Shown in pieces: positions 2,574 to 38,585 of a stretch of DNA of 38,585 bases (its first letter is position 1; every line of letters starts with the position of its first letter). Source of the DNA: a virus. The position numbers and the translations under genes were made by a program. The notes under the pieces were generated by a model. That model did no database searches. It had not been told where the DNA came from and worked only from the letters and a program-made list of their open reading frames with translations. The stretch lies in IMG/VR virus record IMGVR_UViG_3300045988_036717, one strand, 5' to 3'.

Positions 2574-3059
2574 CTACTCCTTGATGAACTGCTTGTGACA
2601 GTAAGGACATGTGATAGTATCTGTTTCTTTCTCCTCTTTCTTTGACTCTTCCGCTTCGGTGAAGAAGTCATCGAGATTTACTTCCTCGTTATCTGGAAAT
2701 CCAAGTTCTGACATATCAATGTCAATGTTGTCTAACTCCTCGCTAAGAATATCCATGTTGAATCCAGTGTTCATTGTGGTTTGATTGTGGACAAGCGTAT
2801 ATGCTCTTCTTTGTTCGTCTGTAAGATCATCTAAACGAATAACTGGAACTTCTTTCATACCTAATTCCTTGCAAGCCTGTAACCGTCCATGACCTTCAAC
2901 AATTAGATTGTCTTTTCCCCAGATGCCAATAGGGTCATTCATGCCGAATTCCCGAATTGAATTTTTAATTTGCTCAATCTGTTCAGGTGTGTGAATCTTT
3001 GCATTCTTTTCGTATACTTTTAGCTGCTCAATAGGAATGTGATCTACTTTTAACTTCAT
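2574..3059 (-). CDS. ParB/Srx N-terminal-domain protein with C-terminal CxxCH knuckle (DpdB-like candidate)
   Basis: IPIEQLKVYEKNAKIHTPEQIEQIKNSIREFGMNDPIGIW...VEGHGRLQACKELGMKEVPVIRLDDLTDEQRRAY is a ParB-like nuclease-domain signature. It is followed by an acidic linker and ITCPYCHKQF. The SD is GGAGGAGG. Confidence 0.75.
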   Translation of the reverse strand: MKLKVDHIPIEQLKVYEKNAKIHTPEQIEQIKNSIREFGMNDPIGIWGKDNLIVEGHGRLQACKELGMKEVPVIRLDDLTDEQRRAYTLVHNQTTMNTGFNMDILSEELDNIDIDMSELGFPDNEEVNLDDFFTEAEESKKEEKETDTITCPYCHKQFIKE

Positions 3060-3085
3060 TGAATTGTTCCTCCTCCATTCTGAAA

Positions 3086-3101
3086 TGTTCCACGTGGAAC
3101 A
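3086..3101. promoter_or_regulatory. parS-like 16-bp perfect palindrome TGTTCCACGTGGAACA
   Basis: It matches the Firmicute parS consensus TGTTNCACGTGAAACA at 15 of 16 positions. It lies 27 nt upstream of the ParB-like ATG. Confidence 0.6.
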
Positions 3102-3116
3102 CTTTTCGCTTTTTTT

Positions 3117-3131
3117 GTTTCTTTTTGAAAC
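3117..3131 (-). promoter_or_regulatory. GTTTC-N5-GAAAC motif copy (perfect arms)
   Basis: The plus strand reads gtttctttttgaaac. It lies in the leader of the ParB/DpdA operon. Confidence 0.6.
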
Positions 3132-3151
3132 AGAAAAACGGCTATATTCAC

Positions 3152-3181
3152 ATTATAATGCAAAATTTACCGTTTTTCCAA
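3152..3181 (-). promoter_or_regulatory. Predicted sigma-70-type promoter for the deazaguanine operon
   Basis: The minus strand reads TTGGAA (3181-3176), an 18-nt spacer, then TATAAT (3157-3152). Confidence 0.5.
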
Positions 3182-3270
3182 AAAATCATGAGATTTTATT
3201 AATTTTGTGTATTTACTTATGGATGTTACATCTTGGTGTCACACCAGACAATGCCCGTTACCCTCGGGGG

Positions 3271-3651
3271 TTACTTCAGCTTCTCGATTCTATGCATAGC
3301 TAGCTTCTTTAGATATTCTTTTTCAATCATACCTGCATCAGCTAACCTGTGACAGCTTTTGCATAAGCATATAAGGTTATCATCATTCAACCATAGCTCT
3401 GGCTTATCCTTCAGCTTCTCTATGTGATGCACTTCTATGTTACGGTAGTTATATATGCCTTTGTCTTTGCATACTTCACATAGATAGTTTGCATCCTCTC
3501 TGATCTGTTTGCTCTTCTCTGTCCATGCACTCTTGCTTCTCAGCCTTGACTCTTTGTAGCTGTACTTGTAGTGTTTCTTTTCTACATGGCATACATAACC
3601 TTTCGGATGTATCTTTCCACATCTGCTACAAGCATAGTACCCTTGTGCCAT
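3271..3651 (-). CDS. HNH endonuclease (packaging-associated type)
   Basis: CEVCKDKG...IEVHHIEKL...NLICLCKSCH is an HNH/zinc-finger motif. The start overlaps the endolysin stop (TAATG). Confidence 0.85.
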   Translation of the reverse strand: MAQGYYACSRCGKIHPKGYVCHVEKKHYKYSYKESRLRSKSAWTEKSKQIREDANYLCEVCKDKGIYNYRNIEVHHIEKLKDKPELWLNDDNLICLCKSCHRLADAGMIEKEYLKKLAMHRIEKLK

Positions 3652-5890: not shown

Positions 5891-6316
5891 TTAAATCCAT
5901 CCTAATTCCTCGCATTGCTTATTAATCGCTCTTAATTCTGCAATAGTAATATCTTTTGGATTTCCAAACCAAGATACATATACTGTCTTTATTTCTAAAT
6001 CAAATTCAATTAACCATTCAATTACATTTCCGTTATGTCTTTCAAATTCAATACATCCATCTTTGATACGCTTTTTATAATCAAGATCATTAAACATCTG
6101 CTCGGCAGTTTTTTCTTCGCATTCCTCAAGCCAATCATGCGATACTCTTCTATATGTATACTTATATTTTCTAGCTTCATATTCAGCTTTGTTTAAATCA
6201 TCAATCAATCTACCATTCGCAACTTCCAATTCGTTGATTCACTCTGAAACAACTAAGGAATAAAGGAGCATTGAAGCTATACCACCTATAAAAATTCCTG
6301 CAAAAAAATAAATCAT
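5891..6316 (-). CDS. Paralog-family protein with N-terminal TM helix, interrupted by in-frame TGA at 6239-6241
   Basis: ATG 6316 has an AAGGAG SD and encodes MIYFFAGIFIGGIASMLLYSLVVSE, followed by TGA. The same frame continues INELEVANGRLIDD...ELRAINKQCEELGWI. The downstream part has only a TTG and no SD. Confidence 0.5.
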
Positions 6317-10599: not shown

Positions 10600-10923
10600 T
10601 TATAATATCGACTGTAATTCTTTCATATACTTTGTGATCAATGCCATGTATGATTCTCTGTCTGGCTTTTCTTCATGTCCATAGTTTACAGTGATTTGCA
10701 TCGCATTCAGCTTTTCCACGATCTTACAAGCCTTGTTGATTTTCTCTGCAAATTTCTTTGCATCTTCGATGTTCTGCGTTCCATAAGCCGACCAGTTCAC
10801 ACCGAATGTTTTTACTTCTGCAAGACAGCTGGAAGTTTCTTCAACAAAAACTGTTCTGCCTTCCATAATTTCATTTACTGCACTCATAAGTGCTGAATAT
10901 TCTCTGTTGTTCATGTTTGTCAT
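10600..10923 (-). CDS. Hypothetical protein (107 aa)
   Basis: ORF with an ATG start. An extended -10 (TGTTATAAT) lies upstream near 10960. Confidence 0.55.
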   Translation of the reverse strand: MTNMNNREYSALMSAVNEIMEGRTVFVEETSSCLAEVKTFGVNWSAYGTQNIEDAKKFAEKINKACKIVEKLNAMQITVNYGHEEKPDRESYMALITKYMKELQSIL

Positions 10924-18483: not shown

Positions 18484-18654
18484 CATCTGTCGAAAAAAAA
18501 GAATTGTCTAATTCATACTCGATTTTAAGATTTTCTTGTTCGGCATACAGATTAAACAACAACGAATATAATTTTTCTGCGTCCATATTTTCACCGCCTC
18601 TCATCGGCTAGTATGGACTGCTTTTTTTATTTTCAAACAAACGGAGGTATTTTT

Positions 18655-19989
18655 ATGAGAAAAAATCTGCGAGTGGCAGGATACGCTCGTGTTTCCACTG
18701 ATGAACAAAAGAAATATGGATATTCAATACAGGCCCAGACTGAAGAAATAACGCAATGGTGCAACGACAACGATCATGACCTGCAACATATCTACATTGA
18801 CGAAGGATTCTCAGCAAGCACCATGAAACGCCCACAGCTGCAATCCATGCTTTCAAACCTGAAAAATCTTGATGCCATAGCTTTCACACGCCTTGACCGT
18901 CTGTCACGTAACGTCCTTGAAGCTAACAAGATGTTAGAACTTCTTCAACAAAACAATGTCGCCATGATTTCCATATGCGAGGACGATATAAATACATCAA
19001 CTGCAAACGGCTTGTTTATGTTCAACCTTAAAGTCAACCTTGCGGAGCATGAATTAAAAAAAGGCTCTGAACGCATTAAAGCCGTATTTGAGTACAAGAT
19101 TGCACAAGGACAACCTATCACTGGCAACGTTCCTTTTGGCTACAGGATTGCCACAGAAAACGGAAATAAACGCATTGTAATTGATGAATCAAAGGCACCA
19201 ATCGTGAAAGACATTTTCGCATCATTTCTACTGCATCAATCAGTCCATTACACTGTAGAATACGTCAACCAGAAATACGGACTGTCTCGACCGTATATGT
19301 CCTACATGCACATATTAAAGAATGAATTTTATGCAGGATCATACCGTGGAAACGCCAATTACGCTGAACCATACATCACGAAAGAAACATACAATGCCGT
19401 TCAGACAGCTTTACAAGCCAATATACGCACAGGAATACAACGACATGTATATTTATTCACTGGACTTTTAAGATGCCCAGAATGTCGCTCTAAATTGGTT
19501 GGAGTGAGCCATCCAAAAGGCGGCAAGCGATATTATTATTACCGATGCAACAATGCACACTCGGTGCATACATGCTCCCACAAAAAGCATTATGCAGAAC
19601 TTGCAACGGAAAAATATCTGCTTTCTAATCTTGATACGCTGCTTAAAGATCATATAGCCACAATATCAAGCATCACGTCTGAAACAAAAGACACAACCGA
19701 AAAGGAATTAAAAGAATTAAGAAAAGAGCTTGATAATCTGAATTATATATTCATCAAGAAGCGCATGCCTGTAAGTACCTATGAACGTCTTTATGCGGAA
19801 ACGGAAGACAAAATAAAAAGGCTTGAATCTTTCAAACCTCAAAGCACGGACCATCTTAACCAATTTTTAAGCAGCGGTTGGCGCTCAATATATGATAATC
19901 TAACACGTGAGAACAAACGCACCCTATGGCGCAATGTTCTTGATTCTGTCCATGTTTCACCTGATGGAATAGAAGTTTTCTTCAAGTAA
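18655..19989 (+). CDS. int: Large serine recombinase (integrase)
   Basis: MRKNLRVAGYARVSTDEQKKYGYSIQAQ is a resolvase catalytic N-terminus. It is followed by a recombinase domain, a zinc ribbon (CPECRSKL...YYRC) and a coiled-coil C-terminus. The SD is GGAGG. Confidence 0.9.
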   Translation: MRKNLRVAGYARVSTDEQKKYGYSIQAQTEEITQWCNDNDHDLQHIYIDEGFSASTMKRPQLQSMLSNLKNLDAIAFTRLDRLSRNVLEANKMLELLQQNNVAMISICEDDINTSTANGLFMFNLKVNLAEHELKKGSERIKAVFEYKIAQGQPITGNVPFGYRIATENGNKRIVIDESKAPIVKDIFASFLLHQSVHYTVEYVNQKYGLSRPYMSYMHILKNEFYAGSYRGNANYAEPYITKETYNAVQTALQANIRTGIQRHVYLFTGLLRCPECRSKLVGVSHPKGGKRYYYYRCNNAHSVHTCSHKKHYAELATEKYLLSNLDTLLKDHIATISSITSETKDTTEKELKELRKELDNLNYIFIKKRMPVSTYERLYAETEDKIKRLESFKPQSTDHLNQFLSSGWRSIYDNLTRENKRTLWRNVLDSVHVSPDGIEVFFK

Positions 19990-38281: not shown

Positions 38282-38585
38282 CTATTTCACCTTCATTTCT
38301 ACTTCTTTTCTTAGGTCACTGTTTGTCTTAAACAGACCCGTTAGATTGGTTACATCAGTAAATCCGTCACTCTTAGCCCATCTTGCACTCACACAAGCAT
38401 GGTCTGCTTTGATATTAACATAGACGCTTTCGCTACCTGTTGCCATCGAAAGACATTCAGAAATATCCTGTGCTAGTCTTTCCTGTAGCTGTAATCTTTT
38501 GGCACACAAATTCACAATTCTAGGAATCTTGCTCAGTCCAATAACTTGGTATCTATCTTCAACTTCTTTAGGAACGTAAGCAACC
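38282..38585 (-). CDS. folE: GTP cyclohydrolase I (FolE), C-terminal part (joins 1-336 across the circular junction)
   Basis: ...GLSKIPRIVNLCAKRLQLQERLAQDISECL...VNIKADHACVSAR is a FolE C-terminal signature. The frame is continuous with 336-1, giving 194 aa in total. The stop is a TAG at 38282. Confidence 0.9.
   Translation of the reverse strand, partial: VAYVPKEVEDRYQVIGLSKIPRIVNLCAKRLQLQERLAQDISECLSMATGSESVYVNIKADHACVSARWAKSDGFTDVTNLTGLFKTNSDLRKEVEMKVK
38531..38585. repeat. Second copy of the 55-bp terminal overlap
   Basis: Identical to bases 1-55. Confidence 0.95.

Follow-up and report, generated by a model that had tools for sequence, protein, structure and literature searches.

Phages are known to carry both parS sites of the host type and ParB-fold proteins that assist DNA-modifying enzymes. 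The Bacillus phage phi29 has five parS sites, and the host Spo0J helps to trap the phage genome in the spore (Meijer et al. 2005, as related in PMC2731898). In bacteria, the insertion of preQ0 requires, together with DpdA, the ParB-superfamily ATPase DpdB, a homodimer of 80-95 kDa that has a DGQQR/DGQHR-type ATPase domain and an SspE/DndB-like C-terminal domain (PMC10164549). Recent work has found ParB-fold modules to be common partners of phage DNA-modifying enzymes. The phage protein ParB176, which has no DNA-binding domain, activates the thymine dioxygenase 5mYOX176, and is required by it, on double-stranded DNA (PMC13229309), and other phages encode fusions of ParB_N to a DNA methyltransferase (PF02195+PF01555; PMC12704722, PMC12783734). 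Here we present the case of IMG/VR virus record IMGVR_UViG_3300045988_036717, a stretch of 38,585 nts that we refer to as the window, in which an element of each kind is found side by side. One is the perfect 16-bp palindrome TGTTCCACGTGGAACA (3086-3101), with the sequence of a chromosomal parS. The other is a gene on the minus strand (2574-3059) for a 161-aa ParB_N protein, next to a gene for a phage DpdA. The reading that we put forward, tentatively, is that these are two separate neighbours: an orphan host-type parS that would bind the ParB of the host, and a ParB_N protein that would act separately as an accessory factor of DpdA.

A review table of parS sites gives TGTTCCACGTGGAACA as the chromosomal parS of Pseudomonas putida and P. 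aeruginosa, with the Myxococcus parS one base away, and TGTTNCACGTGAAACA as the consensus of B. subtilis and Corynebacterium. An earlier model-made description of this DNA (the original prediction) had pointed out a perfect 16-bp palindrome at 3086-3101 matching the Firmicute parS consensus at 15 of 16 positions. Both statements stand: the palindrome is the sole perfect one of 16 bp in the window, and it has one mismatch to TGTTNCACGTGAAACA. A perfect palindrome of this length is not rare as such, as 0.86 are expected per mononucleotide-shuffled window and 1 is observed. The resemblance to parS is non-random by shuffling, since a parS match with at most one mismatch appears in none of 200 shuffled windows, and the analytic estimate for such a match is approximately 0.003 per window. 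Scanning the window with up to three mismatches to the palindrome returns the site at 3086-3101 as the single match, versus 0.07 expected. Heptamers corresponding to half a parS are found 17 times in the window, including two within the palindrome, versus 9.7 expected, a marginal enrichment. The palindrome does lie upstream of the ParB_N start codon, as predicted, but the distance of 27 nts that had been given is the difference between coordinates; 26 nts, which include the ribosome-binding site GGAGGAGG, separate the palindrome from the ATG at 3059.

Other identities were considered for the palindrome. A cI/cro operator is rejected, as the genome has no second copy of the palindrome, and the XRE-type cI-like and cro-like regulator genes are far away, at 17.8-18.5 kb. 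Neither LexA (GAAC-N4-GTTC) nor further Firmicute operator consensuses fit the palindrome. A plus-strand terminator, flagged by a scan, is set aside because there are no plus-strand genes upstream to read into it, and because the coding strand has no U-tract downstream.

The palindrome is well conserved amongst close relatives. Searching IMG/VR with a pattern taken from the leader outside the palindrome yielded 17 contigs, which together with the window make a set of 18 genomes (L numbers below are our own handles for the contigs). The palindrome is exact in 12 of these, has one substitution in three (TGTTTCACGTGGAACA in L224 and L230, TGTTCCACATGGAACA in L232), and is absent from the remaining three. 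The variant TGTTTCACGTGGAACA, read on the other strand, agrees with the B. subtilis consensus at 16 of 16 positions. A nineteenth member, L128, was found via the palindrome itself, so that the site is present in 16 of the 19 members of the lineage, across four types of gene cassette. In L226 a clean 24-nt deletion flanked by AAATG has removed the palindrome, and in L219 and L228 unrelated sequence occupies its place. In the alignment of the lineage, similarity ends directly 3' of the palindrome, and the first gene downstream varies. Of the conserved leader elements, the palindrome is the one closest to the variable cassette. By this alignment, then, the palindrome is part of the conserved leader that runs from the HNH gene and the cos end to an exchangeable cassette, and not part of the ParB_N gene.

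The same sequence recurs in other viruses. At least 120 IMG/VR contigs contain the exact 16-mer, and two control palindromes of the same composition are found in 12 and 3 contigs, which makes an over-representation of at least 10-40 fold in viral contigs. Among these matches are some genuine parS arrays, in which copies of TGTTTCACGTGAAACA lie close by. From the excess, orphan parS sites would seem to be frequent on phages, and to have been overlooked. In about 1 Mb of related loci not fetched via the palindrome, the TGTTNCACGTGNAACA family is confined to this lineage and to L197, a phage in a Clostridia metagenome-assembled genome (MAG) with a terL 71% identical. There, a perfect TGTTTCACGTGAAACA is located at 10797-10812, in a 32-nt spacer before the tape-measure gene. 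The unrelated contig L164 has the exact 16-mer at 2640-2655, just upstream of the major head gene.

Taken together, the identity with parS, the conservation of the site, its over-representation in viral contigs and the precedent of phi29 make the binding of host ParB the most likely function of the palindrome. The original prediction had left three options: a site where a ParB-type clamp is loaded to guide modification, the recruitment of host Spo0J/ParB-SMC, and an autoregulatory operator. Of these, recruitment of the host protein survives best. No ParA and no full-length ParB is found among the scanned proteins of the window, nor a parAB operon or an origin-proximal cluster of parS sites. 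We infer that the chromosomal ParB/Spo0J of a Clostridia host would bind the palindrome and be loaded there. ParB dimers of the host would read it with their helix-turn-helix (HTH) domains, close as cytidine triphosphate (CTP) clamps, and spread along the DNA near the cos end. The likely benefit would be that shown for phi29, a coupling of the unintegrated phage genome to the segregation/SMC machinery of the host, resulting for instance in entrapment in the forespore or in a daughter cell. Lying between a promoter-like element and the ribosome-binding site, the palindrome could also act, secondarily, as a roadblock on the late/modification operon. The palindrome would be accessory to the phage, given that three relatives have lost it.

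Several observations weigh against the binding of host ParB. The parS match has been scored against B. subtilis and Pseudomonas sequences, and these may not be the parS of the actual host. There is one site per genome versus five in phi29, and the window has 8 Spo0A boxes versus 5.75 expected, so that these are not enriched, unlike in phi29. The three members without the site (L226, L219 and L228) show no obvious compensation for it. The phage encodes a serine integrase (18613-19989, plus strand), which confines any segregation benefit to the unintegrated state. Finally, all three natural variants of the palindrome keep its potential to form an RNA hairpin, as the C to U change produces a G.U pair, and the G to A change falls in the loop.

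This last observation favours an explanation at the level of RNA, or of a generic DNA hairpin, in which a stem-loop in the leader affects the stability, processing or translation of the mRNA of the first cassette gene, and the likeness to parS is a coincidence. The palindrome is predicted to fold as RNA into a stem of 8-9 bp. It does so within a leader predicted to form a string of hairpins (minimum free energy -20.9, z -2.5; z -2.7 for the whole intergenic region), and the copies in other phages are also just upstream of a ribosome-binding site. We regard this explanation as unlikely. It does not account for the exact parS sequence that no shuffled window reproduces, for the excess of the 16-mer over palindromes of matched composition in viral contigs, or for the independent presence of the other canonical parS variant in a related phage. 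Besides, the stem is short and has no U-tract after it on the coding strand.

The relationship between the palindrome and the ParB_N gene is clarified by the cassettes. The slot between the leader/HNH and terS exchanges at least four types of DNA-modification cassettes, and every intact cassette of the four types encodes a ParB_N protein. Type 1, found in the window on the minus strand, consists of ParB_N (161 aa), dpdA, queCDE and folE. In type 2 (L005 and L226), ParB_N is fused to an N6/N4 methylase, and the ParB_N domain is 86% identical to that of the window. Type 3 (L186 and L218) includes one or more TET-associated glycosyltransferases (TAGT), a ParB_N protein of 259 aa and a UDP-galactopyranose mutase (Glf). 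Type 4 (L128) includes an unknown protein, a PAPS-reductase-like protein and a ParB_N-like protein. The palindrome also precedes the TAGT/Glf and the PAPS-reductase-like cassettes, in which the first gene is not ParB_N. We also observe further cassette deletions in lineage members L222, L224 and L227.

The original prediction tied the palindrome to the ParB-like/DpdA pair, and we considered whether the phage ParB_N proteins themselves use it, either as a loading site from which modification is guided or as an operator that represses the operon. A ParB_N gene in each intact cassette, with the palindrome just upstream in most lineage members, would be expected from such a role, and the ParB_N domain retains the GxxRxxA motif for binding nucleoside triphosphate (NTP). 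However, the protein has no HTH or any other recognisable DNA-reading domain, two ParB_N subtypes (161 aa and 259 aa) are found behind one and the same site, and the two distributions are independent. L227 retains the palindrome in front of a mutase remnant with no ParB_N gene, and L226, L219 and L228 have ParB_N genes and no palindrome, in the case of L226 with a ParB_N domain as close to that of the window as given above. Within the DNA examined, none of the more distant ParB_N loci, of which at least 12 are ParB_N-DpdA loci, has a site within three mismatches of the palindrome, and a parS scan of 53 kb of the 85-kb record of Fusobacterium phage phiFN37 finds none. The expectation that related dpdA phages would share the palindrome is therefore correct for the phage's own lineage, and incorrect for the other ParB_N-DpdA loci, including that of phiFN37. 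Because of this independent distribution, a coupling of palindrome and ParB_N gene is disfavoured, and a loading site or operator of the phage's own proteins seems quite improbable to us.

We give a similarly low probability to the palindrome being a neutral passenger, a small host-derived or chance insertion with no function that is kept because the lineage is young. The members are closely related and have a single metagenome project as their origin, high conservation extends over the entire core leader and not just the palindrome, and three members do without the site. A passenger would not, however, be expected to persist across recombinant cassettes, or in L128, where the adjoining GTTTC dyad has decayed and the palindrome is kept. 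Nor does it explain the independent parS sites in other phages and the strong excess in viral contigs.

The second of the two neighbours, the 161-aa protein encoded at 2574-3059, is a ParB_N protein of the ParB-CTPase fold, followed by an acidic linker and a C-terminal CPxC knuckle. The predicted ParB/Srx N-terminal domain is confirmed by Pfam ParB_N (30.9 bits versus a cut-off of 26.3, residues 5-92) and by a match to phrog_620 with E=5e-50. The same domain forms the N-terminal part of ParB-methylase fusions (phrog_498; PADLOC MTase_II). The matches in the PDB (Sulfolobus ParB-nuclease, Thermus Spo0J, Noc and ParB) are to N-domains, and cover residues 4-95 only. The segment VEGHGRLQA conforms to the GxxRxxA NTP-binding motif. 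As had been anticipated, the protein has no HTH: neither HTH_ParB nor the C-terminal dimerisation domain is matched, and TIGR00180, the model for canonical partition ParB, scores 39.4 bits, under its cut-off of 58.45. An AlphaFold2 model from the single sequence is too poor to judge C-terminal dimerisation (predicted local distance difference test, pLDDT, of 49.7). The motif CPYCH, described before as the end of the protein, is present, although not at the very end: it is located 8 residues from the C-terminus. The knuckle could be a zinc site, either between subunits or bridging to DpdA.

The name DpdB-like, if taken as orthology, does not hold. The protein includes neither DGQQR nor an SspE-like C-domain, it has only 161 aa, and the DpdB models in NCBIfam and PADLOC do not match it at E<=0.01. 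From these features, we conclude that the 161-aa ParB_N protein is not a DpdB orthologue. The association with DpdA is nonetheless backed by conserved synteny. The gene heads the modification operon, as the original prediction had it, with the order ParB_N-dpdA-queC-queD-queE-folE, and after all 10 short CPxC-tailed ParB_N genes whose downstream DNA is long enough, dpdA comes next. Amongst 71 IMG/VR loci, the ParB_N homologues adjacent to dpdA are all short (152-176 aa), and many of those without dpdA have 343-496 aa; L005, the sole one checked of these, is a methylase fusion. In the alignment, the acidic linker and a single C-P-x-C knuckle after it (encoded within 2574-2620 in the window) are common to all short ParB_N proteins adjacent to DpdA, including that of phiFN37, and the knuckle is absent in two homologues without DpdA. 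In the cultured phage phiFN37, the ParB-like gene (73363-73848) overlaps the DpdA gene (72563-73366), and the tail of the protein reads RCPHCGGIL.

The ParB_N protein is best read, by analogy, as a counterpart and not an orthologue of DpdB and of the ParB activators of thymine dioxygenases. It would be a ParB-CTPase-fold module without a DNA-reading domain that serves as a helper or activator of the adjacent DpdA, and that does not need the palindrome. Two observations count against this accessory role. No C-terminal dimerisation domain, such as the 5mYOX activators need, is detected in the protein, and the queC gene of the window is truncated, so that the pathway may be defective here. A more daring proposal would join the two neighbours again: CTP clamps of host ParB would load at parS, and the phage ParB_N modules, with their N-terminal engagement surface and NTP motif retained, would join or mimic them, carrying DpdA, glycosyltransferases or methylases along the phage DNA before packaging. 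We consider it very improbable; if true, a bacterial centromere system would have been converted into a track along which DNA hypermodification is delivered. In a weaker form, orphan host-type parS sites may be a widespread phage strategy to hijack ParB/SMC.

The genes that follow ParB_N on the minus strand make up a putative 7-deazaguanine DNA-modification cluster. The phage DpdA, of the DNA-guanine transglycosylase family (1847-2557, phrog_887 with E=3e-55), has its ribosome-binding site inside the end of the ParB_N gene. It has weak matches to the DpdA models of NCBIfam and PADLOC, and its homologues include the DpdA of phage 9g. It is followed by queC (1330-1860), which is N-terminally truncated and covers only positions 54-209 of the Pfam QueC profile, by queD (972-1346; 6-carboxytetrahydropterin synthase family, Pfam PTPS with E=1e-29), and by the radical SAM gene queE (338-1054; Pfam Radical_SAM and Fer4_12). 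The last gene is folE (GTP cyclohydrolase I), whose 5' part is at 1-337, which continues from 38585 to 38282 across the circular junction, and which is intact once the terminal repeat is collapsed. A clean deletion of 193 nts sets the window apart from L001-L004, with its junction at approximately 1861/1862 in the alignment to L001. Lost with it are the final codons of dpdA, the spacer, and approximately 55 codons from the start of queC, among them those for the SGGxDS PP-loop motif. DpdA, QueD, QueE and FolE are then present, and QueC, without its first approximately 55 residues, is probably inactive in this genome.

The leader upstream of the cassette consists, in minus-strand order, of the HNH stop codon, small hairpins, the putative cos end, the conserved block TTTTTTGGAAAAACGG, a 46-bp imperfect palindrome, the GTTTCAAAAAGAAAC dyad, an A-rich spacer, the parS-like palindrome and the ribosome-binding site. 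The A-rich spacer AAAAAAAGCGAAAAG (3102-3116, minus strand) keeps its A-rich character in the lineage, and together with nearby A-runs it forms A-tracts phased at roughly 10 nts. The GTTTCAAAAAGAAAC dyad, GTTTC-N5-GAAAC, is located at 3117-3131 (minus strand), 15 nts from the palindrome as the original prediction reported, and in extended form it spans 3110-3138. Its outer arms TGTTTC...GAAACA are the canonical arms of parS, with a spacer of 5 A-rich nts and not ACGT. Exact copies of GTTTC-N5-GAAAC are found at five positions of the window (3117, 10576, 12009, 13884 and 18469) versus 0.06 expected, and degenerate copies at 6235, 12890, 17684 and 36176. The copies have one orientation throughout, they are at gene boundaries, and three of them are 17-19 nts upstream of -35-like hexamers. 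We also observe a Spo0A-box heptamer, TGTCGAA, at 18488-18494, 5 nts from the copy at the end of the cI-like gene.

The 46-bp imperfect palindrome (3133-3178, minus strand), identified by scans for inverted repeats and promoters and by RNA folding, has arms AAAAACGGC...TTCAC and GTGAA...GCCGTTTTT, followed by TTTTTCTGTTTC, and is conserved in the lineage. A TATAAT box (3152-3157) lies at its centre, and a TTGGAA -35-like hexamer at 3176-3181, so that a promoter-like TTGGAA-18-TATAAT reads from 3181 to 3152. This element could be a promoter overlapped by an operator, or else a hairpin of the terminator type, with a U-run after it, for transcripts that read through from HNH.

The probable physical end of the genome falls in this same leader. 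Five IMG/VR contigs from different samples (L006, L007, L012, L222 and L224) start within approximately 7 nts of the point homologous to 3214-3222, and the GTDB MAG contigs L192, L193, L198 and L201 start approximately 10-60 nts from the same conserved block. These contig starts cluster at the block CACAAAA...TTTTTTGGAAAA. From the start point shared by independent contigs, we infer a cos end at approximately 3205-3225, about 115-135 nts from the palindrome; the arrangement of HNH and terS/terL is consistent with a cos phage. A cosB-like packaging signal read by the small terminase or the HNH protein would fit this distance inside the end and the phased A-tracts alongside, the usual position of a terS site, but it is rejected as highly improbable because terS does not co-vary with the palindrome (L226 has no site and a terS 96% identical to that of the window, and in L219 and L228, also without it, terS is essentially that of genomes bearing the site) and broader relatives with the same cos-proximal block have no site. 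In more distant relatives, an array of phased CCTAAAA-type repeats is found near the genome end in place of palindromes.

The window is a circular assembly. The 55-bp direct terminal repeat at 1-55 and 38531-38585 is the assembly overlap of a circular contig, and the true length after collapsing it is 38,530 bp. Judged from its genes, the phage is a temperate cos-type siphophage. Besides the serine integrase, its early and lysogeny genes encode Erf, SSB, RusA and loaders like DnaD and DnaC. The minus strand runs from early genes through holin/endolysin to HNH and then, after an intergenic region of 211 nts, through ParB_N, dpdA, queC, queD, queE, folE, terS and terL to the structural genes. 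The HNH endonuclease gene (3271-3651, minus strand; Pfam HNH) is the last gene before the cos region, and has the same position in all lineage members. The large terminase is 77% identical to that of the Lactobacillus delbrueckii phages c5/LL-Ku, and 55-75% identical to sequences in GTDB genomes of Eubacteriales, Oscillospiraceae, Acutalibacteraceae and Ruthenibacterium. These terL relatives point to a gut Clostridium of the Oscillospirales as the most likely host. A megablast search of the palindrome/ParB_N region against cultured phages gives no match.

If host ParB binds the site, the phi29 paradigm of a borrowed host centromere would extend to temperate siphophages of gut Clostridia. In the short CPxC-tailed ParB_N proteins there is a concrete candidate, open to testing, for the DpdB-equivalent that phage DpdA enzymes are missing. 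DNA-modification cassettes are exchanged at a hot spot between HNH/cos and terS, and each type of cassette comes with a ParB-fold partner.

As in phi29, we find a chromosomal-type parS on a Firmicute phage without a partition ParB of its own, where it is presumably read by the ParB of the host. Unlike phi29, a lytic podovirus with five sites and Spo0A boxes, this is a temperate cos siphophage with a single putative site beside the genome end. With respect to the chromosomal sites (TGTTNCACGTGAAACA in B. subtilis, TGTTCCACGTGGAACA in Pseudomonas), the 16-bp sequence is identical to that of Pseudomonas, and the differences are that the phage copy is single, is carried by a mobile element, and is away from oriC or a parAB operon. 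The linear plasmid-prophage N15 has centromere sites dispersed in phage gene control regions. N15 and our phage are alike in having a site for a partition protein in a phage regulatory region, and they differ in that N15 encodes its own SopAB, whereas our phage has no partition proteins. The ParB_N protein resembles DpdB as a ParB-fold protein adjoining a DpdA transglycosylase, plausibly needed for its action on double-stranded DNA; unlike DpdB, it has 161 aa, EGHGR as a canonical GxxRxxA, a CPxC tail, and no match to DpdB models. It resembles ParB176 as a phage ParB homologue that has no DNA-binding domain and keeps the nucleotide-binding domain, and whose gene adjoins that of an enzyme modifying DNA after replication. 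Activators of the ParB176 type keep their required C-terminal dimerisation domain, where this protein has an acidic linker and a CPxC knuckle, and their partner is a dioxygenase in place of a transglycosylase. With the ParB_N-methyltransferase fusions it shares a homologous domain, 86% identical in the L005/L226 fusion, and the same genomic slot; in the window, the domain is a separate polypeptide and its partner is DpdA. On these comparisons, the palindrome is best read as joining the phage-borne parS sites of the phi29 type, and the ParB_N protein as joining the ParB-fold activators, both of them kinds already known.

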